In this document: positions 1-28,547 of the stretch, piece after piece
How positions within the stretch are numbered: position 1 is the stretch's first letter
Layout of the letters: every line of letters begins with the position of its first letter
Translations under genes and position numbers: made by a program
The notes under the pieces: generated by a model
Seen by the model: only the letters and a program-made list of their open reading frames with translations
The model's database searches: none
What the model was told of the DNA's origin: nothing
Origin: an uncultured Nitrospiraceae bacterium
GTDB lineage: Bacteria > Nitrospirota > Thermodesulfovibrionia > Thermodesulfovibrionales > Dissulfurispiraceae
NCBI GenBank assembly: GCA_963727805.1
Contig: CAVSHF010000003.1
Span: 1,344,001-1,408,000, forward strand
Length of the DNA: 64,000 nt
Direction of reading: 5' to 3'

Positions 1-65
1 GGAATGGCGATGAGCATAGCTATTGTCGAAAGCTGGGTAATCCTGCGCAGAAGCCTTATCCTCAT
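1..65 (-). CDS. napH: NapH-like membrane ferredoxin, 5' fragment (runs off the window)
   Basis: Read by hand: ATG at 65 overlaps the napG TGA (ATGA) and gives MRIRLLRRITQLSTIAMLIAIP..., the RR-x-x-Q start typical of NapH/MauN. Position follows napG. Confidence 0.75.
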   Translation of the reverse strand, partial: MRIRLLRRITQLSTIAMLIAI

Positions 66-541
66 TTGTCAGCCTTTGCCTTCACAATAATTGCTGCGGG
101 ATCGACAGGACAAACATTCTCACATATTCCGCAACCAACACATTTTTCCTGATCGACTACAGGCCTCAATTGATCATCCATGATAATCGCCTCGTTGAAG
201 ATCGGGCAGTTCTCGTAGCAACTCCTGCAGAGTATTCCCTGCCATGGCAAACAGGTCTTCTTGTCGATAATCGCCGTTCCCATCCTGACATTCTGCATAC
301 GCGCTAACTCGCGGTCCAGGGCCCCCGATGGACAGACTGGAGGACACTTCATGCAGAGATAACACGGGATTTCGCGGGCCCTGATGTAAGGAGTCCCCAT
401 CATCGACAGCCCGTCGAGAAGGCTTACGACTATTATCGACCGATACGGGCAGACCTGTGCGCACTTTCCGCACCGGATGCAAGAGCCAAGAAATTTCCTC
501 TCACCCTGCGCTCCGGGCGGCCTCAGAGGCTTTCTACTCAT
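62..541 (-). CDS. napG: NapG/MauM-type polyferredoxin (4 x [4Fe-4S])
   Basis: LRPPGA motif; CIRCGKCAQVCP, CYLC..CPPVCP, C..CRSCYENCP, CVGCGICENVCP; inside the nap operon. Confidence 0.88.
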   Translation of the reverse strand: MSRKPLRPPGAQGERKFLGSCIRCGKCAQVCPYRSIIVVSLLDGLSMMGTPYIRAREIPCYLCMKCPPVCPSGALDRELARMQNVRMGTAIIDKKTCLPWQGILCRSCYENCPIFNEAIIMDDQLRPVVDQEKCVGCGICENVCPVDPAAIIVKAKADK

Positions 542-761
542 CGATCGAAGAATAGACTGGATAAACTCCCACCACTCCTTCCAATGTCTGCATATTTCTT
601 ATACTCTCTTCTATAACACCTATCGAGTCGCCATCCATAACAACAACAATCTGGTTTTCTTTGACTCCGTACACACTCACTTCAGGCATCTGAGCGAGGA
701 TCCCTAATACAGCCCCAATCAAACCCTCTTCGGTTTCTACTACGGCACTTGCGATCGGCAT
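534..761 (-). CDS. napD: NapD Tat-proofreading chaperone
   Basis: 75 aa, MPIASAVV...IVVVMD...LEGVVGVYPVY; directly downstream of napA. Confidence 0.85.
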   Translation of the reverse strand: MPIASAVVETEEGLIGAVLGILAQMPEVSVYGVKENQIVVVMDGDSIGVIEESIRNMQTLEGVVGVYPVYSSIDE

Positions 762-3079
762 TATACCTTCTCCACCCGCACCGCGCAGATCTTGAATTCT
801 GGCTGCTTCGAGAGTGCGTCAAAGGCGTCAATAGTCACTAAGTTGATGAGCCTGTTTGGGTCATGGAATGATGCATAGACAAGTCCATCCCTCGGCACAT
901 CGACGACCTTCGCTTCCATGACGACCGAACCCCTTCTTGAGGTGATCTTCACCATGTCCTTGGTCTTGACCCCGATATTTCTGGCATCCCTTGAGTTCAT
1001 CTCTAGGAACCCGTGGGGAGCTGCGCGCTTCAGTTCAGGCACGTTGTAAGTCATTGTACCGGTGTGCCAATGTTCAAGCTGCCTGCCGGTAGTAAGAACA
1101 AAAGGATAGTCTGAATCGGTGGGCTCAGCCGGGCCTTTGTGCGGCCTGAGCCAGATGGTTGCCCGGTTTCCATCAACCTTTGCCCCGTAGAATGACACAT
1201 CCTCGGCCTGGGGATCGAACTTTTTCACGAGAGGGTCACCATATTTTGCAGTGTATCGCCTTGCTGTGCCGGTGCTGTCTTCCGTCGGCACAGGCCATTG
1301 CATTCCATGGGCCTTCCTGAGACGCGCCCTTGTCATGCCCTTGAAATCGTAGGCCGTCCCTTTAGAGGCCATGCGTATCTCGTTCCAAACATCTTCAGTG
1401 CCCTTGTATGCGAAAAGTTTCTTTGCTTCAGCGTCTCTCCCGAGGGCCTTGAAAAGCCTGTTCGCAAAATCGATCATGACCTGGAGGTCAGGTTTGGCTT
1501 CTGCAGTAGGGTCTACAGCCTTTTCGAGATACTGATATCTCCTCTCAGATTGCCCATAAGTGCCATCCTTCTCGACCCATAGAGCCGCAGGCAGGACAAG
1601 GTCGGCAAGTTCAGATGTCCTCGACGGATGATAAGCCTCAGAGACGACGAGAAACGTTTCATCCGATGCCATCCCCTTACGATAGGATGCGAGATTGGGA
1701 AGGCTTTGACCAGGATTCGTGCAGGCGATCCAAAGGCATTTTATGTCACCCTTATTAAACTCCTGGAACATCTCGATCGCTGTAGGACCTGGTTTGGGCG
1801 CTATACGTCCTTTCGGAACTGACCAGAATTTCTCCATTTCCTCCCTGTCTTTGTCATTCGCAACAACCCTGCCATAGGGAAGTAAATGGCTCAGGAGCCC
1901 ACCGTCTCTGACCCCGCCGCAGGCGTTTGGTTGTCCTGTGAGCGAAAAAGACGTGGCGCCAGGCCTACATATCTGGCCGGTAATAAGATGAAGGTTGTGG
2001 ACAAGATTGTTAGCCCATACCCCTCTTGTTCTCTGATTGAGACCCATGCACCAATAGCTCGATGTTGCCTTTGACTGTGCAAACCACCGCGCTGCCTTGA
2101 TGATGTCCTCTTTCGAGCATTTTGATACTTTTTCAGCCATCTCAGGTGTATACTCGTCGAGAAACTTCACGTAGTCGTCCCATGTAGTTTTTTCGATCTT
2201 GGGCGGAGGGCCGGGGTCGATCATCTTCTTGAAAACCGTATGCTTGTCAACGAAGTTTTTATTGTAGAGGTTTTCTTTCACAATGACATGCGCCATCGCG
2301 TTCAGAATCGCAAGATCCATGCCCGGAATGAAACTCATATGAAGATCAGCGATTTTTGCCGAAAGAGTTTTCCTCGGATCGGCAACAATGATCTTTACGT
2401 CCTTTCCCTTCTGCTTTCTTTCATTGACTATCCTAAATATGACAGGATGGGCCTCGGCCATGTTCGATCCAATGAGGAAGAAACAGTCCGCGTGATACAT
2501 GTCGTCATATGAGCCCATGGGCTCATCCTTGCCGAACGTGGAGACATATCCAACTGCTGCGGAAGCCATACAGAGACGAGGATTCCCGTCAATATTGTTG
2601 GTTCCCAGCCCACCCTTGAAGAATTTCGATATGAAGTATGACTCTTCGGTGTATGCCTGCCCCGAGCCATAGAAAGCTACTGAATTGGCACCATTTTTCT
2701 TTATCGATTCGGCGAACTTGGATACCATGAGATCCATCGCCTCTTTCCATGATATACGCTCGAACTTATTGCCTTTCCTGAGCATGGGATATTTTGCTCT
2801 GTCAGCCGCATAAAGTATCGGAGCAAGAAAATATCCTTTAATGCAGAGGAAACCCTTGTTCCAGTTGTCATTGTCACCTTTGACGCTGACAACCTTACCG
2901 CCCTTTACTCCTACATAAACCCCGCAGCCCGCGCCACAATATCTGCAGACGGCCTTGACCCACTTTTCAGCTTGTACTGCCGCCTCGATCCCCGGTGGCA
3001 ATGGCAGATCGAGTCCAATGGCCGAAGCCGCTGCAAGGGCCGCCGAGAATTTGAGCAATTGTCTTCTTGTTAATTCCAT
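761..3079 (-). CDS. napA: Periplasmic nitrate reductase catalytic subunit
   Basis: Tat signal (LTRRQLLK); CRYCGAGC...C [4Fe-4S]; DGNPRLCMASA with the Mo-ligand Cys; SLTGQPNACG; TGR..EHWHTGTMT; QPEFK. Confidence 0.96.
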   Translation of the reverse strand: MELTRRQLLKFSAALAAASAIGLDLPLPPGIEAAVQAEKWVKAVCRYCGAGCGVYVGVKGGKVVSVKGDNDNWNKGFLCIKGYFLAPILYAADRAKYPMLRKGNKFERISWKEAMDLMVSKFAESIKKNGANSVAFYGSGQAYTEESYFISKFFKGGLGTNNIDGNPRLCMASAAVGYVSTFGKDEPMGSYDDMYHADCFFLIGSNMAEAHPVIFRIVNERKQKGKDVKIIVADPRKTLSAKIADLHMSFIPGMDLAILNAMAHVIVKENLYNKNFVDKHTVFKKMIDPGPPPKIEKTTWDDYVKFLDEYTPEMAEKVSKCSKEDIIKAARWFAQSKATSSYWCMGLNQRTRGVWANNLVHNLHLITGQICRPGATSFSLTGQPNACGGVRDGGLLSHLLPYGRVVANDKDREEMEKFWSVPKGRIAPKPGPTAIEMFQEFNKGDIKCLWIACTNPGQSLPNLASYRKGMASDETFLVVSEAYHPSRTSELADLVLPAALWVEKDGTYGQSERRYQYLEKAVDPTAEAKPDLQVMIDFANRLFKALGRDAEAKKLFAYKGTEDVWNEIRMASKGTAYDFKGMTRARLRKAHGMQWPVPTEDSTGTARRYTAKYGDPLVKKFDPQAEDVSFYGAKVDGNRATIWLRPHKGPAEPTDSDYPFVLTTGRQLEHWHTGTMTYNVPELKRAAPHGFLEMNSRDARNIGVKTKDMVKITSRRGSVVMEAKVVDVPRDGLVYASFHDPNRLINLVTIDAFDALSKQPEFKICAVRVEKV

Positions 3080-3091
3080 CGTAATCCCTCC

Positions 3092-3451
3092 TTAGCGAAT
3101 TTGTTCCACGGACTTCGGCTTTAATGAGTGCCCATCGTGACAGCCCCAGCAAATCTTCAGTCTTTCTTTGTGTCCTGACGCCGCACCGGATACCTGTTCG
3201 GCGTGACAACCGGTGCATTTCTCGGGGCTTGGACGCATTATGAAATTCTTGTCAAGATCTCCGTGACAAACGACGCACCCGACACCCATAAGACCGTGTT
3301 TGCCGTCCTGCCATACCTCAGACTCTTTGTCGTGACATTCACTGCATGCTTGGTCCGGAGGCACAGCTGGGTGCTTTTTGACCACGGCCATTGACACTAC
3401 CGGTAGAAATGTCAAAATCAATAAAATGGTAATAAGTCTTTTCTTTATCAT
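3092..3451 (-). CDS. napM: Tetraheme cytochrome c, NapM-like
   Basis: Sec signal peptide plus four CxxCH motifs (CSECH, CVVCH, CTGCH, CWGCH); immediately upstream of napA; SD GGAGG. Confidence 0.8.
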   Translation of the reverse strand: MIKKRLITILLILTFLPVVSMAVVKKHPAVPPDQACSECHDKESEVWQDGKHGLMGVGCVVCHGDLDKNFIMRPSPEKCTGCHAEQVSGAASGHKERLKICWGCHDGHSLKPKSVEQIR

Positions 3452-7280: not shown

Positions 7281-7553
7281 TCAGACTTCGAAAAGACTGC
7301 GGGGCTGCTCGGGCTGCAGGTCGTCGTAATCCTCAAGGGCTTCGGCGTACTCCCTGATTAGTTTCATGGAATCGAGAGCGACCGCTTCGTCTACCTTCTG
7401 GATCGCAAAGCCGGCGTGCACAAGCACATACTCACCCACCTGCGCTTCCTCGGGCAGTAATATCAGGCTGACTTCCCTTCGGGCGCCGAAGACATCAACA
7501 GTCGCAAGAAGGTTATCTATATTGATAACTTTTGAGGGGACGGCAAGACACAT
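7281..7553 (-). CDS. hypC: HypC/HybG/HupF hydrogenase assembly chaperone
   Basis: MCLAVPSKV start with Cys2; GEYVLVHAGFAI. Confidence 0.95.
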   Translation of the reverse strand: MCLAVPSKVINIDNLLATVDVFGARREVSLILLPEEAQVGEYVLVHAGFAIQKVDEAVALDSMKLIREYAEALEDYDDLQPEQPRSLFEV

Positions 7554-8032
7554 TCTATATTCCACTCCTTCAGCTTATCGATGGTCAAATCGATGACTTT
7601 CTCTATATTAGCATTAACAATATCAGACATTTCAAGGCCGAAGGTAAAATCAATGTCAGCTGGCTGCATGCCGATCAGGCAAACCTTCGACGGCATGACA
7701 CCTTTCAGCTTCGCAACCGAAAGGAGATCGGCAAGACCGATCTGATGCACGGAAAGTTTGGAAAAGATAACGGCAGGGATCTGGTCGTTTTCGAGTATCC
7801 CGATATAACCAGGCTCCCTGCCGAAATTTACCGCGTCGACTATCAGGACCCGGTCGAACTGCTCGAAAAGAGGAAGGAGGTCAAGGCCCAGCGTGCCGCC
7901 ATCGATAATCTCCAACTCCGGAGAGTAGTCATACCTCTCCTTTATCGTTGTGACCACGTGGACCCCAAGCCTCTCATCTTTAAGCAGTATATTCCCGAGC
8001 CCTAAAAGTACTGTCGACAAATTAGTGCCCAT
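7517..8032 (-). CDS. hyaD: Hydrogenase maturation endopeptidase (HyaD/HybD family)
   Basis: GLGNILLKDE, IIDGGTLG, IVDAV, SVHQ; follows the cytochrome b gene. Confidence 0.92.
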   Translation of the reverse strand: MGTNLSTVLLGLGNILLKDERLGVHVVTTIKERYDYSPELEIIDGGTLGLDLLPLFEQFDRVLIVDAVNFGREPGYIGILENDQIPAVIFSKLSVHQIGLADLLSVAKLKGVMPSKVCLIGMQPADIDFTFGLEMSDIVNANIEKVIDLTIDKLKEWNIECVLPSPQKLSI

Positions 8033-8666
8033 CCTCCATATTTTTATAGCCGCTGAATATCGAGCTCATCAAACCATTCCTCTCGATGAGGTCATTGTGC
8101 CACGAGATGTACACATGAACGATCACGAAAAGGCCAATGACCCACATGATCAAGTGGTGGACAAGCCTCAGATAGGCAACGCTCATCAGGCTCAGCGACC
8201 AGCCCCCAAGAAGCGTCCAAAGAATTCCGCCTCCAAGAGCCTCTTTATACATCGCAAAACCCGTAACGATCTCTATGATGTATAAAACAAACAGAAACAG
8301 GTACGAAAGCCCGGCCAACCCGGTATGTCCCGGATAGTGCGGCAGGTCCTTCCTGCAGAATGCATAGAACGCTGCCGTACAAACCGTGTTATCCAACCTC
8401 TCTTTCGACGTCGGGATGAACTGGTTGAGCTTCGCATACTTGTTGCCTGCAAACCACCAGTACATCCTCACTATGACGCAGACCGTAAAGAGAAAGGCCG
8501 CGACAAAGTGAACGAACCGCATGTAAGCCATGATCAGTGAATCGGCATCTCCATCCAAGAAGGGGGCGCCGATGTAAAACCCCGTTACGGATAGCACCAC
8601 GATGCTCAACGCAATCAGCCAGTGCGCCACTCGTACCGGGAACTCCCAAACATAAACTCGACTCAT
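8022..8666 (-). CDS. hyaC: Ni/Fe-hydrogenase b-type cytochrome subunit
   Basis: YVWEFPVRVAHW, RFVHF, RLVHH, IVHVY, SSIFSGYK; four TM segments. Confidence 0.95.
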   Translation of the reverse strand: MSRVYVWEFPVRVAHWLIALSIVVLSVTGFYIGAPFLDGDADSLIMAYMRFVHFVAAFLFTVCVIVRMYWWFAGNKYAKLNQFIPTSKERLDNTVCTAAFYAFCRKDLPHYPGHTGLAGLSYLFLFVLYIIEIVTGFAMYKEALGGGILWTLLGGWSLSLMSVAYLRLVHHLIMWVIGLFVIVHVYISWHNDLIERNGLMSSIFSGYKNMEDGH

Positions 8667-8676
8667 GGCGGCCTCC

Positions 8677-10389
8677 TTATCTCAATTTGACGCTGACGAT
8701 CTCTTGCCCCTGGGTATCAAGAACATGGATGGCACACGCCATGCAAGGATCGAACGAATGGATCGTTCTCTGGATCTCCAGTGGCCTATTCGGATCGGCG
8801 ATCGGTGTTCCCATAAGGGCCTCTTCGTCCGGTCCTCTCTGTCCCTTGGTGTCTCTCGGCGATGCATTGACCCCACCGGGGACTACACACTGATAGTTAT
8901 CGATCTTCTGGTCCTTAATAACAATCCAATGGCATAGGGCTCCACGCGGGGCCTCATGATACCCATACCCTTTAGCCTCTGCCGGCCAGGTAGAGGGCTC
9001 CCACTTTTCAGTGTTGGCGGTTTTCAGGTCTCCCTTTTTCATGTTCGCCGCAAGCTCGCCGATATAATCAGGCATTTTGTCGGCAATAATCGCCGTCTCG
9101 ATACCCCTCGCAGCGGTCCTGCCGAGTGTCGAGAAAAGCGCTGCCGGTCCAACTCCCAGCTTACCCAGGACCATATCGACAGTTGCCTTGGTCTCTTTAT
9201 GCCCTGACGCATACGCAACAAGCATCCTGGCAAGAGGCCCGACTTCAACTGATGCTCCGTCATAACGGATCGCCTTGACCCAAGAATACTTCTTATCAAG
9301 ATCAAGAGACTCATATGGCGGCTTTGGTCCGGTGTAGTTAGGATCTGTCTCACCAACCCACGGATGGAGCGGTTTTGAATCACCGCCTTTATATTTATAC
9401 CAGGAACGTGATACCTCTTCCGTCATTTTCATGTGATCAACGGGAAGGACCTTGCTCAGGTCCTTATTCTTTATGTAGCCCCTCGGCAACCAGACTTTAT
9501 CAGTATTCGGCTCGTTTGCACTCTGATATTCGCCGTACGAAAGGTAATTCCCCACACCACCACCAATCGCCGCCCAGTCCTTATAGAAAGAAGCGATTGC
9601 GAGGAGGTCAGGTATGTATACCTTCGAGACAAAATCCTTCGCCTTCTGAGCGAGATCCAGCATCATTGCAATGCTACCTGCGTTCAGTGCATTCTGGCTG
9701 TTCGGATCAACCGGTGTGGCCATGCCGCCGACAACGTATGTCTGCGGATGAGGATTTTTTCCACCGAGAAGGGCATGGATCCTTATAAAGTCTTTCTGAA
9801 ACTCAAGCGCCTCAAGATAGTGTGCTACCGCCATAAGATTCGCTTCGGGCGGCAGCTTATAAGCCGGATGTCCCCAGTATCCGTTTGCGAAGATACCGAG
9901 CTGACCGCTCTCGACGAAAGTCTTCAGCTTGCCGGCAACTGACTTAAAGTAGCTGACCGATGAGTTGTTCGGCCAATCGGAAAGCGATGAAGCAAGAGCC
10001 GCAGTCTTTGCAGGGTCTGCCTTCAAAGCACTTACGACATCGACCCAGTCAAGGGCATGGAGATGATAGAAATGGATTACATGGTCCTGAATGGTCTGTG
10101 AACAGTTGATAATATTACGGATGATTCTCGCGTTGTCGGGGATTGTAATGTTGAGCGCAGCTTCAACAGCTCTCACGGAGCTGGTAGAGTGTACGGTAGT
10201 TCAAACCCCGCAGATACGGGACACGAACGTCCATGCGTCCCGCGGGTCTCTGCCTTTCAGCATGACTTCCAAGCCTCTCCACATTGTGCCTGCAACCCAG
10301 GCGTCAGCGATTTTTCCGCCTTCGACCTTGGCTTCGACACGCATATGTCCTTCTATTCGCGTCATGGGATCAACGACTATTTTAGCCAT
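8677..10389 (-). CDS. hyaB: Group 1 [NiFe]-hydrogenase large subunit, 570 aa, with an in-frame TGA at codon 63 (putative selenocysteine in the L1 motif RICGVU)
   Basis: ORFs 10201..10395 and 8677..10176 share one frame, joined by TGA (10201-10203) plus TTVHSTSS. Motifs [43 protein letters not shown] plus a 15-aa cleavable tail. SD GGGAGGA 6 nt before ATG 10389. Confidence 0.9.
10161..10189 (-). promoter_or_regulatory. Bacterial SECIS-like hairpin downstream of the in-frame UGA
   Basis: CAGCUC-CGUGA-GAGCUG perfect 6-bp apical stem (10167-10183), extendable imperfectly; loop begins 23 nt after the UGA and has G at position 2. Confidence 0.65.
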
Positions 10390-10404: not shown

Positions 10405-11469
10405 TTAGTCCTTATTTTTGCCTTTTGTGGCTGTCCTGATAGCTGCGTGAGCCGCTACGGCGGCCACTGCAACTGCCGCTATACCAAGGCCGATCTTGTC
10501 AGCATTGGCCATAACACCCGCGCCGGGTACCTTGGGCATTCTCTTGTAGAACGGATATGCCGCATCCCAGTTCCCCGGTGTCGAGCAGGCAATGCAGCCA
10601 TGTCCGGCCATTACCGGCCAGCTCGTACCACCGTTCCACCTGACTGTCGGACAGTTCTGATGCGACATCGGGCCCTTGCAGCCCATCTCGTAAAGACACC
10701 ATCCCTGCTTGGCTCCATCGTCTCCCCAAGCCTTCACAAACTGCCCGGCATCAAAATGCGGACGCCTCTCACAGTTGTTGTGGATCAGTTTTCCAAAAGC
10801 AAACTTCGGACGGCCATTGCTATCCAGGGCGGGTAATGCACCAAAAGTGAGGAAATGTACTACGGTGGCGGTGAAGTTCTCTACGTTCATCGGACAACCG
10901 GCGATATTGACGACTGTGCCGCCGATAGCTTCCTGAATACCAACATATCCACACGGATTCGGGGCGGCTGCGGAGAGCCCGCCGAAACAGGCGCAGTTGC
11001 CTACAGCGATATTCGCCATTGCGCCGGCCGCGACTTCCTTGAGGATAGCCATCGAGGACTTCCCGGCAACGCAGCAATAGACTCCGCCGTCCTTCGAAGA
11101 GACTGCTCCCTCATAAACAGCGATATACTGGCCCTTCTTGTTTTTCAGAATGTCCTGCAGCGATTTCTCAGCGGCTGTTCCACAAGGGGCCATGAGAGTC
11201 TCATGGTAATCAAGCGAGATGATATCAAGCACAATCTGCCCGATAGTCGGCTTTGTCGCCCTCAAGACTGATTCGGAATCACCGGTACATTCCGCAAAGT
11301 GCATCCAGACAACCGACGGTCTCTGCTTCTTTTCCAGGGCTTCGGCGATCTGAGGGACCGCGGAAGAGCTCAAACCTAAAGTCGCAGCTGTTCCAGCGCA
11401 AAACTTCAGGAAGTCCCTGCGCGACACCCCTCGTCGCGTCAGATAAGAATAAATGCTCTCGTTCTCCAT
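10405..11469 (-). CDS. hyaA: Membrane-anchored [NiFe]-hydrogenase small subunit
   Basis: Tat signal SRRDFLKFC; proximal ECTGDSES...GNC...GCP; distal H..C...CLY.MGCKGP; medial C...WP...CIAC ([3Fe-4S]); C-terminal TM anchor with His. Confidence 0.95.
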   Translation of the reverse strand: MENESIYSYLTRRGVSRRDFLKFCAGTAATLGLSSSAVPQIAEALEKKQRPSVVWMHFAECTGDSESVLRATKPTIGQIVLDIISLDYHETLMAPCGTAAEKSLQDILKNKKGQYIAVYEGAVSSKDGGVYCCVAGKSSMAILKEVAAGAMANIAVGNCACFGGLSAAAPNPCGYVGIQEAIGGTVVNIAGCPMNVENFTATVVHFLTFGALPALDSNGRPKFAFGKLIHNNCERRPHFDAGQFVKAWGDDGAKQGWCLYEMGCKGPMSHQNCPTVRWNGGTSWPVMAGHGCIACSTPGNWDAAYPFYKRMPKVPGAGVMANADKIGLGIAAVAVAAVAAHAAIRTATKGKNKD

Positions 11470-11523: not shown

Positions 11524-11552
11524 ATTGTAGACGAAATGCTACGTGGTGTCAA
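11524..11552 (-). promoter_or_regulatory. sigma70 promoter of the hydrogenase operon
   Basis: TTGACA-N17-TACAAT, about 55 nt upstream of the small-subunit ATG. Confidence 0.7.
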
Positions 11553-11584: not shown

Positions 11585-13909
11585 TTATAGATTCGCATTC
11601 CGAATAATATATGCCTGACCAAGCGAAAGACATGCGTCATTGCAGGGGATATTCTCATTCGTAAAGACGGCAAAACCGAGGGTGGATAGCTCGCGAAGAG
11701 TTCTTTCTAAGAGCATTGCATTCTGGAAGCATCCCCCGCTCAGAGCAACGCGGTCCATTCCAGTTTTTCCCCTTATGCGGCATACCATATCGACGATTAC
11801 CTTAATCATGGTAATGTGGAAACGTAACGAAATAACTCTCTGATCAATATGGCTTTTCACCTCACCGGCAATCTCGGAAATCATCTCAGAAAAATCGATG
11901 ACAGATGTCTTTCCATCATAAATACGATAGGCATAAGGGGCTGTTTGAGCGCTGTTGTCGGTATCGGGGAGCGCACTTTCGAGCGCTACGGCAGCTTCGC
12001 CTTCATAGGTGCTGGTGTGACAAATCCCAGCAAGTGCCGAGATCGCGTCGAAAAGCCTTCCCGCGCCTGAGGTGAGGGGAGAGAGAGTCCGATTATCGAT
12101 AATCTTAAGCAGCGTGTCGAGGTTGCTCCTGCTGTATCTTTCTAAATAGCCTATATCCGTAAGATACTGATAGACGTCGCGGTCGTCCGCGGCGGACTGC
12201 TTCAAATAGCTGACCGCAATCCTCCATGGCTCTTTGATAGCCTTTTCACCTCCCGGCAGTGGAACATAGCGAAAGTGGCCAACCCTTTCGAATCCTTCAA
12301 GAGAGCAGACTAGAAACTCGCTTCCCCACAAATGACCGTCAGTGCCGTAACCTGTGCCGTCAAAAGCGACGCCGATTACTTTTCCTTTAATGCCGTTCTC
12401 CGCCATAACCGCTGCAATATGGCCATGGTGATGCTGTATTCCGTATCCCTTCAAGCCTTTTTCACCAATGTGCTGTAGCGCCCATTGGGTTGACAGATAT
12501 CCGGGATGAAGATCATAGGCGACCGCGACCGGATCGGACCGGTAAACCTGCTTGAGATTTTCTAGCGACTCCTCGAAAAATTCGAGGGTCTCCAGATTCT
12601 CCATATCGCCGATGTGCTGGCTGACAATCGCCGCATTTCCCCTCGTGAGGGTGAAGGTGTTTTTCACCTCCGCACCGCAACCGAGGACATCTGGGCCTTC
12701 TTCGCCCAGCATAATCGCTTCCGGTGTGTATCCCCTCGACCGCCTGATAAAATGAGTTTTTCCATCGATAACCCTAATCACGGAGTCATCCACCCGCATA
12801 AAAATGTCCCGGTTATGAAATAAAAAAGCATCGGCGAGCCCCCCAAGCCTGTCAAGGGCATCATCATTGGCGATTACAATAGGTTCTTCGGAGAGATTTC
12901 CGCTCGTGGCGACGAGAGCCCTGAAATGGGGGAGTTCGTTGAAGCTTTGAGGCTGATTAGTCCGGCAATGAAAGAGAAGATAATGCAGCGGTGTATAAGG
13001 GAGCATAAAACCGAGAAAGCTGTTGTGAGGCGCCACAGCATCGGGAAGGCGGGATGGCTTTCTTTTGAGCAGAACGATCGGCCTGCGCATGTCGCAAAGC
13101 ATCTTTGCTTCATCGGTAGAAACATGGCAGAACTGACTGACTATGGCGACGTCAGGAGACATCACGGCAAACGGTTTATTTCTCCGTCTCTTTCTTTCTC
13201 TGAGCAACCTGACAGCTTCTGCGTTTTCGGCATCGCAACAGAGATGAAATCCTCCGAGCCCTTTTATCGCGACAATCGCACCCTGTTTCAATAATTCTAT
13301 CGCCGCGGGAATCGGTTCCCGTTCATCAACTTTGAACTTTGAACTATGAACTTTTAGGTGTACTTGAGGTCCGCATGAAGGACAAGCATTAGGCTGGGCA
13401 TGGAATCTCCGGTCCGACGGATCGTTATACTCCGCCAAACACTGAGGACACATAGGGAAAACCGACATAGTAGTATTTGGCCTGTCATAGGGAACTTTTC
13501 TGGTAATACTGTATCTCGGACCACAATTGGTGCAGTTGGTGAATGGATATTGAAAGCGCCTATCCGAAGGAGTTAATAGTTCTTTCAGGCAGTCGTCACA
13601 TATTGAAATATCCGGTGAGACATGCGTGAATCCTCCTTCGTCGATGCTCCGGAGGATTGTAAAGTCGTCATAGCCTGTGAGAGGCAGCTCTTTGATCTCT
13701 ATTGATTCGATCCTGGCAAGCGGAGGGAGATTCTCGCGGTGGGCTTTCGCAAATCCTTCGGCCTCATCGCCCTCAACCTCGATGATCACGCCCTCTGAGG
13801 TATTCGTCACATACCCCGTCAATCCCAGTTTTCGTGCAAGGTTATACACTGAGGGCCTGAAACCGACGCCCTGCACCGTTCCTTTAATCGTTATGTGAAA
13901 ATGAGCCAT
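11585..13909 (-). CDS. hypF: Carbamoyltransferase HypF
   Basis: GTVQGVGFRP acylphosphatase domain, two CxxC-x18-CxxC Zn fingers, KGLGGFHL, QHHHGH, DGTGYGTDG. Confidence 0.97.
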   Translation of the reverse strand: MAHFHITIKGTVQGVGFRPSVYNLARKLGLTGYVTNTSEGVIIEVEGDEAEGFAKAHRENLPPLARIESIEIKELPLTGYDDFTILRSIDEGGFTHVSPDISICDDCLKELLTPSDRRFQYPFTNCTNCGPRYSITRKVPYDRPNTTMSVFPMCPQCLAEYNDPSDRRFHAQPNACPSCGPQVHLKVHSSKFKVDEREPIPAAIELLKQGAIVAIKGLGGFHLCCDAENAEAVRLLRERKRRRNKPFAVMSPDVAIVSQFCHVSTDEAKMLCDMRRPIVLLKRKPSRLPDAVAPHNSFLGFMLPYTPLHYLLFHCRTNQPQSFNELPHFRALVATSGNLSEEPIVIANDDALDRLGGLADAFLFHNRDIFMRVDDSVIRVIDGKTHFIRRSRGYTPEAIMLGEEGPDVLGCGAEVKNTFTLTRGNAAIVSQHIGDMENLETLEFFEESLENLKQVYRSDPVAVAYDLHPGYLSTQWALQHIGEKGLKGYGIQHHHGHIAAVMAENGIKGKVIGVAFDGTGYGTDGHLWGSEFLVCSLEGFERVGHFRYVPLPGGEKAIKEPWRIAVSYLKQSAADDRDVYQYLTDIGYLERYSRSNLDTLLKIIDNRTLSPLTSGAGRLFDAISALAGICHTSTYEGEAAVALESALPDTDNSAQTAPYAYRIYDGKTSVIDFSEMISEIAGEVKSHIDQRVISLRFHITMIKVIVDMVCRIRGKTGMDRVALSGGCFQNAMLLERTLRELSTLGFAVFTNENIPCNDACLSLGQAYIIRNANL
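13327..13354. repeat. Degenerate 7-bp tandem repeat (4 copies) inside hypF
   Basis: caacttt gaacttt gaactat gaacttt. Confidence 0.6.
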
Positions 13910-27123: not shown

Positions 27124-27591
27124 TCAGGTGCCGCTTCTCCGTTCGCTAAAAAAGCTTTTAAGCAACTGTGAGCACGCTGCTTCGAGCACCCCCGAGACGA
27201 CCTCTACCTGATGGTTGAGCCTGTTGTCTGAGAGCAGCCGGTACAGGTTTGCGACAGCGCCTCCCTTTACATCGCTGCATCCATAAACAAGCCGCCCGAG
27301 GCGGGCATTCACCATTGCACCGGCACACATCGGGCAGGGCTCTTTTGTGACATAAAGGGTGGCGTCTAAAAGTCTCCATTTCCCGAGCTTCTGCGCGCCT
27401 TCCCTGATGGCCATAATTTCGGCATGGCCGGTGGGATCATAGGATGTTTCCCTGTTATTGTGAGTTGACGCTATCGCCTGCCCGGCGACGACCAAAACCG
27501 CACCAACCGGAACCTCTCCCTCTCTGAAGGCCGCCTGTGCCTCCCTGAGGGCTAACCTCATGAAATTAACGTCTTGATCCACTTCACCCAC
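27124..27591 (-). CDS. tadA: tRNA adenosine(34) deaminase
   Basis: GEVPVGAV, HAE, EPCPMCAGA, LNH. Confidence 0.94.
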   Translation of the reverse strand: MGEVDQDVNFMRLALREAQAAFREGEVPVGAVLVVAGQAIASTHNNRETSYDPTGHAEIMAIREGAQKLGKWRLLDATLYVTKEPCPMCAGAMVNARLGRLVYGCSDVKGGAVANLYRLLSDNRLNHQVEVVSGVLEAACSQLLKSFFSERRSGT

Positions 27592-28202
27592 TGTTCGATA
27601 CCTTCTCCTGTCTTGCTCGACACTTCAAAGATCTCCATTGAAGGATTGAGGGAACGGGCATCCCGCTTGATCTTCTCGACATCTACATCAAGGAACGGCT
27701 TGAGGTCGATCTTGCTGATCAGAAGGGCCTTGGACTCCTGGAAGATAATGGGGTATTTCAACGGTTTGTCATGCCCTTCGGTGAGGCTCAGAATTGCAAC
27801 CTTGATATCTTCACCAAGCTTAAACTCCGCCGGGCAGACAAGGTTTCCAACGTTTTCGATAAAGAGCAGCCTGATAGAATCGAGCGGCAATTCGTCAAGG
27901 ACGTCTGAAATCATGCTGGCATCTAGATGACAGGCCCCTCCCGTATTGATCTGCACTACAGGCACACCTAGACGATCAATGCGCTCGGCATCGTCAGTCC
28001 CCATTATGTCTCCTTCGATGACGCCCAGATTCACTTCATCACCGAGAGTCCTGATCGTCGTTTCGAGCAGCGTCGTTTTGCCGGCACCAGGAGAACTGAT
28101 AAGGTTAATAACAAAGATGCCTCTGTCGTCGAAGGACTTCCGGTTCCCTTCTGCGATCCGCTCATTGGCGGTGAGGATCTTGTTCGCAAGCTTCAGCTTC
28201 AT
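27558..28202 (-). CDS. hypB: Hydrogenase nickel-incorporation GTPase HypB
   Basis: SSPGAGKTT, TGGACHLDA, ENVGNLVCPA, DKPLKYP. Confidence 0.96.
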   Translation of the reverse strand: MKLKLANKILTANERIAEGNRKSFDDRGIFVINLISSPGAGKTTLLETTIRTLGDEVNLGVIEGDIMGTDDAERIDRLGVPVVQINTGGACHLDASMISDVLDELPLDSIRLLFIENVGNLVCPAEFKLGEDIKVAILSLTEGHDKPLKYPIIFQESKALLISKIDLKPFLDVDVEKIKRDARSLNPSMEIFEVSSKTGEGIEQWVKWIKTLIS

Positions 28203-28547
28203 TCAAAAAACCTCCATTTCAGTTATCATCAATTCGCGACCGGTCAGCAGTGTGTAGGAAACACCGCCGCAATGGGGGCAGCTCAGAATATAGATCTCTT
28301 CGGTCGTAAAATCCTTTCTGCAGTCATTGCAAAGACCAGTGACAGGGACCTCTTCAATTTCGAGAGCAGCATTATCAGCAATAGTCCCTTCCTTGACGGC
28401 GTTGAAGCCAAAAAGCAAGGCATCCGGCATAACTCCGGATGCCTTGCCTATCAACAACTTTATACTCCCTATTTGACTAAACCCTTTACTCCTGCAATTT
28501 TCAAGGGCAACGTCCAACAGGCTCTCGGCAATGGACAACTCATGCAT
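28203..28547 (-). CDS. hypA: Hydrogenase nickel metallochaperone HypA
   Basis: MHELSIA, CNDC...CPHC, GREL. Confidence 0.96.
   Translation of the reverse strand: MHELSIAESLLDVALENCRSKGFSQIGSIKLLIGKASGVMPDALLFGFNAVKEGTIADNAALEIEEVPVTGLCNDCRKDFTTEEIYILSCPHCGGVSYTLLTGRELMITEMEVF

Follow-up and report, generated by a model that had tools for sequence, protein, structure and literature searches.

A conserved in-frame UGA at the second N-terminal ligand of a group 1 [NiFe] hydrogenase from a Nitrospirota bacterium: a probable natural selenium bridge between nickel and iron

The large-subunit gene of a hydrogenase operon in the DNA presented above carries a TGA codon at the place where homologues encode a metal-binding cysteine. 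The question raised by this locus is whether the codon is a stop, encodes selenocysteine (Sec) or is translated as Cys and, if Sec is inserted, which place it takes in the active site. The operon lies in a window of 64,000 nucleotides (the whole stretch of DNA that was analysed) from a source genome (G000) that is 100% complete and composed of 5 contigs. The second Cys of the N-terminal ligand pair (L1; C79 of E. coli Hyd-1) is presumably a bridging ligand. Two of the four Cys ligands of these enzymes bridge nickel and iron (PMC8020662, PMC12134894), and that this Cys is among them follows from the Discussion of Takano 2026 (PMC13582414). The reading that we consider probable from the sequence data is that of a membrane-bound hydrogenase of group 1, likely 1f, in which Sec at codon 63 would form the Ni-Fe bridge.

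The hydrogenase gene, its UGA codon and its operon

The TGA at codon 63 is the sole internal stop among the 570 codons of the large-subunit gene (Table 1). The L1 region reads TGC GGG GTT TGA ACT ACC GTA CAC on the minus strand (peptide RICGV*TTVH), and C60 and U63 pair with C76 and C79 of E. coli Hyd-1 in the alignment. The best PDB matches of the large subunit are group 1 enzymes, with HysA scoring far lower. The catalytic residues E13, D102, H103, R482 and H555 are retained, and L2 is followed by a cleavable tail of 15 residues. L1 with the UGA at its second ligand, L2 and the tail together give the protein the make-up of a group 1 membrane-bound [NiFe] large subunit. An earlier note on this DNA had placed the TGA exactly on the second Cys of L1 as the only stop, and had described L2 (TGC and TGT codons) and a cleavable tail as intact; these observations were confirmed.

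The operon order is small subunit, large subunit, cytochrome b, protease and hypC. The Tat-dependent small subunit, the cytochrome b, the protease and the hyp genes constitute the partner set of a group 1 membrane-bound [NiFe] hydrogenase. The operon and hypABCF are all open frames within the window, as the earlier note had stated, while hypD and hypE are found outside the window, elsewhere in the source genome. The proximal motif of the small subunit is C-T-G-D, where solved relatives carry a second Cys; C-x-x-D, C-x-x-N or C-x-x-C occur in relatives across both the UGA and the Cys types. About 4 kb beyond the downstream end of the operon, window positions 62-3451 hold genes coding NapA-like, NapG-like and small cytochrome c proteins, and these periplasmic nitrate reductase-like genes are a possible electron sink for the hydrogenase.

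Table 1. Features of the hydrogenase locus and of related loci of the source genome (positions are those of the window unless preceded by G000).
Feature	Position	Strand	Remarks
[NiFe] hydrogenase large subunit, group 1	8677..10389	-	570 codons; PF00374 767 bits
TGA, codon 63, second L1 ligand (Hyd-1 C79 equivalent), putative Sec	10201..10203	-	
TGC, Cys60, first L1 ligand	10210..10212	-	UxxU relatives have TGA there
SECIS-like hairpin: 6-bp stem, 5-nt loop, G at second loop position	10167..10183	-	loop starts 23 nt past UGA
Gly-Gly-Val replacing the usual (Ser/Thr)-Thr-Trp after Val-Pro	8869..8877, codons 505-507	-	Hyd-1 T532-T533-W534
L2 motif C549-x-x-C552-x-x-H555, all Cys	8725..8745	-	TGC 8745-8743, TGT 8736-8734
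Small subunit	10405..11469	-	Tat signal, C-terminal hydrophobic stretch, proximal motif C-T-G-D
Cytochrome b subunit	8022..8666	-	TIGR02125 above cut-off
Hydrogenase maturation protease	7517..8032	-	TIGR00072 above cut-off
hypC	7281..7565	-	TIGR00074 above cut-off
hypF	11585..13909	-	TIGR00143 above cut-off; upstream of operon
hypA and hypB-like GTPase	27558..28547	-	PF01155, PF02492
Sigma-70-type promoter match, 11/12	11524..11552	-	consensus match only; 7 sites found vs 4.0 expected
All-Cys twin operon	G000:C3:956-960 kb (L158)		starts just after a tRNA-ReC-like gene and two rhodanese genes
tRNA-ReC-like gene, long variable arm	G000:C3:960042-960162 (L158)		just upstream of twin operon
tRNA-ReC-like gene, long variable arm	G000:C3:994188-994317 (L160)		precedes YeeE-family transporter gene

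Conservation of the UGA codon and of a downstream hairpin

Contigs of two DNA runs (X1, possibly the source sample, and X2) span codon 63 with no alternative letter, an agreement of contigs and not of raw reads; a contig of run X5 reaches the codon near the contig end, and run X3 has no coverage. In the RNA runs X15, X16 and X19 contigs of close relatives span the UGA codon, also with no alternative letter among the matches listed, but the shares are small, DNA may be present, and these contigs are given no weight here. A sequencing error is ruled out by the agreement of contigs from separate DNA runs and by the conservation of the codon. The earlier note had proposed a search for orthologues with TGA at the same codon: in 61 genomes it is shared by 27 of the 30 best-scoring loci, of which 9 are CxxU and 18 UxxU (U standing for TGA), the other three being CxxC. 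Together with its presence in at least 119 GTDB loci, this rules out a singleton nonsense mutation.

Two wider samples were analysed. In the order of the source organism, 143 of 251 genomes matched the first 130 residues. Among the 150 matches listed (2 further matches are not listed), a hand count over the first 130 codons gave 28 with one TGA, 86 with two and 36 with none, i.e., 114 of 150 with TGA; half of the TGA-free matches (18 of 36) come from one genus. TGA positions in the 251-genome sample were read just for loci fetched individually. A pattern scan of GTDB gave at least 120 matches, 119 of them in the large-subunit frame (L088 failed the filter), divided into 52 CxxU and 67 UxxU; the pattern required TGA and thus yields no allele frequency. 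The 80 named matches among the at least 120 listed belong to Chloroflexota (35), Nitrospirota (28) and other groups (17), including Desulfobacterota and Methylomirabilota. L2 is CxxC in all 68 GTDB loci that cover it. The UxxC form was met in none of the loci, the GTDB pattern being unable to show it. Downstream of the UGA the source gene and its G005 counterpart differ by 204 synonymous versus 36 non-synonymous codon differences, and in four pairs from the same genus synonymous differences are four to six times as numerous as non-synonymous ones. A conserved in-frame UGA aligned with the Cys of homologues, one of the criteria for a bacterial selenoprotein, is what these comparisons reveal.

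TGA is otherwise a normal stop in the source genome, where it ends 559 of the 1629 frames with at least 300 codons, and a genome-wide recoding of UGA is ruled out by this usage. The same usage speaks for taking codon 63 as a genuine stop, whether it arose by nonsense mutation, gene splitting or sequencing error, as do the UxxU relative L037 of genome G022, which has a further TAG downstream at codon 376 (a broken gene or an assembly error), and the intact twin operon described below, which could free the UGA copy from selection. We nevertheless regard a true stop as extremely improbable: the codon is shared across several phyla, the contigs of separate runs agree, synonymous differences prevail downstream of it, the hairpin that follows is allele-specific, and a restart at codon 72 loses both L1 ligands. 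The closest protein-database match is a 499-residue fragment, member of a 75-member cluster, that starts from a GTG after the UGA; this GTG lies within the hairpin loop and is a false start chosen by gene callers. The mishandling by automated annotation that the earlier note had anticipated is therefore found in the databases, which hold the truncated form. As gene callers start past the UGA and lose both L1 ligands, H2 oxidation in Nitrospirota and Chloroflexota is probably undercounted by motif-based surveys.

The CxxU group of the source gene sits in a 23-row clade of the tree (support 97) together with 11 UxxU rows, which makes a loss of the first Sec (codon 60) in this group plausible. 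The closest named sequence comes from a Dissulfurispiraceae genome (Nitrospirota), and the source organism is therefore likely a member of this family. A second, distant CxxU clade (L169-L174, L051, L066, L068, L071, L093) has a different hairpin register, the copies of relatives being ~51% identical, and may reflect a separate acquisition of Sec at this ligand.

The hairpin downstream of the UGA has an unremarkable folding energy (z -0.01 over 74 nt), and an equally good fold is reached by 1055 of 5000 synonymous recodings. Folding energy was rejected as proof of a SECIS element because it is not significant, and covariation and the contrast between alleles were used instead. Of 149 distinct UGA alleles, 105 form at least five of the six stem pairs, versus 4 of 29 Cys alleles, and the Val wobble position is G in 141 and 4 of them, respectively. 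Two-sided changes were found at five of the six pairs among 31 distinct UGA hairpin cores (18 cells; none of 500 shuffles, which take no account of kinship, gave this result), and none was found among the 29 Cys alleles. Several of these compensations alter the encoded residues (S-S-V-R-A, C-S-V-R-A, A-S-V-R-S, A-S-V-R-G). Conversely, L204, a Cys allele within the UGA clade, keeps the residues and has lost the stem. When each core is counted once, overall pairing is 67.7% in UGA and 62.1% in Cys alleles, a difference kept small in part by lineages that adopt a different folding register; 44 of the 149 UGA alleles misfit the register of this hairpin. The hairpin characteristic of bacterial selenoproteins, in which the first or second nucleotide of the loop is G, is thus recognized here through covariation and not through folding energy.

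Decoding of the UGA and an all-Cys twin operon

The source genome carries selA, selB, two selD genes and tRNA-Sec (selC), that is, all components of the Sec machinery for which the earlier note had suggested a search. UGA is found at the expected sites of its two SelD, two MvhD and three Fdh genes; the selD genes (G000:C3:482960-483883 and C5:157506-158420) each have an in-frame TGA. selA was identified in 58 of the 61 relatives, so that its presence does not discriminate and its co-occurrence with the UGA is uninformative; it is not listed for G005, a genome that is 79% complete. A canonical tRNA-Sec is listed for all but three of the 37 UGA-type genomes, the exceptions being the draft assemblies G012, G028 and G035. 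In G028, a CxxU genome, the best match of the tRNA-Sec family (G028:C48:3665-3760) is a tRNA-ReC-like gene.

The tRNA-ReC class, defined by a length of at least 80 nt, a GCA or UCA anticodon and a U discriminator (Takano 2026, PMC13582414), is reported to place Cys at Sec UGA codons via SelB (PMC11415595). Two genes of the source genome, both missed by ARAGORN, have these properties: they are at least 80 nt long, tRNA-Sec-shaped, and carry a GCA anticodon and U73. Their presence makes the decoding of UGA as Cys a live alternative in this organism. The codon would then be read mainly by SelB-delivered tRNA-ReC, and the product would be an ordinary four-Cys [NiFe] enzyme whose translation depends on SelB and on the hairpin. 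The same caveat is stated by Takano 2026 (PMC13582414), and in G005 a 7-kb contig, which may be chimeric, holds both the CxxU operon and, upstream of it, a tRNA-ReC-like gene. However, tRNA-ReC shows no link with the UGA alleles. It was detected in 17 of 37 UGA-type genomes (20 without a match) versus 11 of 24 other relatives, i.e., 28 of 61 overall, with a model built on 20 genes from 19 of the same 61 genomes; scoring covered the 64 best candidates of each genome, and six matches were not read. An association with the UGA allele was thus not found. In GTDB, none of 50 UGA-type genomes reached the tRNA-ReC score range (taken from the 80 named ones, with Nitrospirota and unclassified genomes left out). 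The 29 best tRNA matches read in this mostly Chloroflexota set are 28 UCA/G73 tRNA-Sec genes and a single UCA/U73 gene. As no tRNA-ReC was found in many UGA-type genomes, the UGA allele does not need it. The all-Cys twin would, moreover, be redundant if the UGA were read as Cys, the tRNA-ReC-like copy beside this twin deviates from the consensus in the anticodon and T arms, and the counterpart site of G003, upstream of its own Cys twin operon (L162:2500-3050), holds a decayed look-alike. A reading mainly as Cys is therefore unlikely in our assessment; the sequences argue for Sec as the likely meaning of the codon-63 UGA throughout the family, with some Cys insertion possible in the source organism. 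A further tRNA-ReC-like gene, L192 (G032:C88:5391-5482), has a GUA (Tyr) anticodon.

The second hydrogenase operon of the source genome codes a large subunit with all Cys ligands that is 76% identical to the UGA large subunit. Comparison of the twin with the window in bins of 150 nt gave 59-85% identity across the large subunit and 97-100% across the small-subunit gene, the leader 5' of it and the beginning of cytochrome b. The DNA identity of the small-subunit gene pairs is 98.3% within G000 and 99.0% within G003 versus ~82% between these two genomes, a pattern that points to repeated gene conversion; in G002 the small subunits are not homogenised (77.5%). Presumably a given small subunit can partner either large subunit. 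The twin belongs to a separate all-Cys clade (support 99) with paralogues of G002, G003, G016, G183 and G231, genomes that also have a UGA copy. Methanogens keep Sec/Cys hydrogenase pairs in one genome and, by analogy with these pairs, the all-Cys twin would likely stand in under selenium shortage. As the Sec and Cys large subunits share 76% identity and nearly the same small subunit, the effect of a selenium bridge is directly measurable, and the source genome offers a built-in control for how it influences catalytic bias, the affinity for H2 and the recovery from O2. In the Chloroflexota locus L112 a Cys-type large-subunit start is found ~2 kb or less from the CxxU gene, possibly another Sec/Cys pair.

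Active-site surroundings, proposed mechanism and known systems

A Gly-Gly-Val sequence replaces the usual loop residues near the iron in the source enzyme. The Ser/Thr at this loop position (Hyd-1 T532) is taken here to contact an iron cyanide in the solved enzymes; a literature search on the cyanide-binding Ser/Thr found nothing. Gly505 is present in 30 of 106 UGA-type versus 0 of 27 Cys-type full sequences (near-duplicates included), and the Gly-Gly loop occurs in 0 of 116 full-length Cys database matches versus 4 of 4 truncated ones. Most UGA alleles are without the Gly change, so that the loop is not required for Sec. Its restriction to the UGA type would agree with an alternative in which Sec is inserted while this sub-lineage, marked by the Gly-Gly-Val loop, Cys486 and Asp521, has a changed active site and has given up standard H2-uptake catalysis, or in which the selenium does not bridge. 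The four ligand positions and E13, D102 and R482 are nonetheless retained, the complete operon evolves under purifying selection, and the loop is kept across a well-supported clade; we hold a departure of this kind to be quite unlikely.

In the favoured scheme, with Sec as the Ni-Fe bridge, SelB would bind the hairpin after the UGA and deliver Sec-tRNA. The Hyp proteins would load nickel and Fe(CN)2CO, and the protease would cut off the 15-residue tail. The dimer, exported by the Tat pathway and anchored, would oxidise H2 outside the membrane and pass electrons via cytochrome b to the quinone pool. When selenium is scarce, the all-Cys twin would substitute, using the almost identical small subunit, and tRNA-ReC might let some Cys into the UGA. 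The Gly residues at 505-506 may retune the cyanide pocket of the iron in this sub-lineage. The proposal of the earlier note, Sec at the C79-equivalent site of a Tat-exported, cytochrome b-linked enzyme, is supported by the alignment, the operon, the Sec machinery and the shared codon. A broader picture is put forward tentatively, as a possibility that we would not yet favour: a widespread, unannotated family of uptake hydrogenases with a Ni-Se-Fe bridge, often with a second selenium on the nickel, in which UGA is the majority form in Thermodesulfovibrionales and is common in Anaerolineae. In the source lineage, the bridge might alternate between Se and S, both because Sec and Cys large subunits take turns on a single small subunit kept alike by gene conversion and because tRNA-ReC reads through the UGA; glycines might have rebuilt the cyanide pocket of the Se form.

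The proposal of the earlier note that the L1 Sec site marks a candidate new hydrogenase type is not supported. CXXU was described in Group 4 (27 sequences) and in two Group 1 sequences, and the C79U exchange has been engineered (PMC13582414, PMC8020662). That note knew of no characterised natural example and the literature search likewise found none; nor did it find a description of a Group 1 L1-Sec clade in the open-access main texts that it covered. The in silico survey of Takano 2026 reports 27 CXXU and 16 UXXU sequences within a Group 4 set of 47 N-terminal-Sec sequences, ~0.2% (PMC13582414). Likenesses with the genes studied here are the N-terminal UGA, the CXXU and UXXU forms, a single downstream hairpin with G in its loop, the mosaic of Sec and Cys clades and the tRNA-ReC caveat (PMC13582414). 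That set consists, however, of Group 4 energy-converting complexes (CXXU/UXXC/UXXU), whereas the source gene is group 1 by sequence and operon, Tat-exported and cytochrome b-linked. Furthermore, UGA alleles are the majority in the order sampled here, and tRNA-ReC is not enriched with them, in contrast to the Group 4 set. The two Group 1 CXXU sequences of Baltazar 2011, whose Sec was predicted to be a Ni-Fe bridge (as given in the Discussion of Takano 2026, PMC13582414), share group and position with the source enzyme, but they are two exceptions compared to a clade of more than 100 genomes here. They may belong to this clade, and the tables of Takano or Baltazar may already list members of it.

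The closest functional parallel is artificial. E. coli Hyd-1 C79U shares the Sec position with the source enzyme, without co-evolved surroundings; it is active at 13% of native, the best of four variants, and has a lower KM for H2 than the native enzyme, but it is almost inactive at 10% O2 and not more O2-tolerant (Evans 2021, PMC8020662). Hyd-1 also differs by its O2-tolerance proximal cluster, where the source small subunit has C-T-G-D. Evans 2021 concludes that C576 is the position singled out for selenium and refers to purported natural examples at C579 (PMC8020662), and the partial text of a 2026 review gives UxxC as the sole form for hydrogenase catalytic subunits. A large natural clade that has UGA at the C79 equivalent, and in which encoded residues changed while the hairpin was preserved, suggests that selenium is of use at a second position as well.

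The canonical [NiFeSe] enzymes (HysA of Desulfovibrio and Desulfomicrobium; Vhu, Fru) resemble the present system in having Sec as a nickel ligand and Sec and Cys isoenzymes in one genome. Their Sec is the first L2 ligand, a terminal one (C576 equivalent), whereas L2 of the source enzyme is all Cys and its partner is a cytochrome b. A HysA-type identity was rejected on account of the TGC at the first L2 ligand and of the HysA-type models, which scored below cut-off with the source protein (NF045518, 388 vs 780; NF033181, 521 vs 600). The Geobacter-type uptake enzymes, which we take to be HydDB group 1f, a likely placement for the source lineage too, are 69% identical and branch beside the Nitrospirota clade. 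The C-x-x-D/N small-subunit motif is common and the gene order (small subunit, large subunit, cytochrome b, protease) is the same; the UGA at L1 separates the source enzyme from these 1f hydrogenases. The L1 Sec site itself is already in print, and what is added here is the all-Cys twin operon with its nearly identical small subunit, the two tRNA-ReC-like genes that could place Cys at this UGA, and the Gly that takes the place of a conserved Ser/Thr near the iron in UGA alleles alone.
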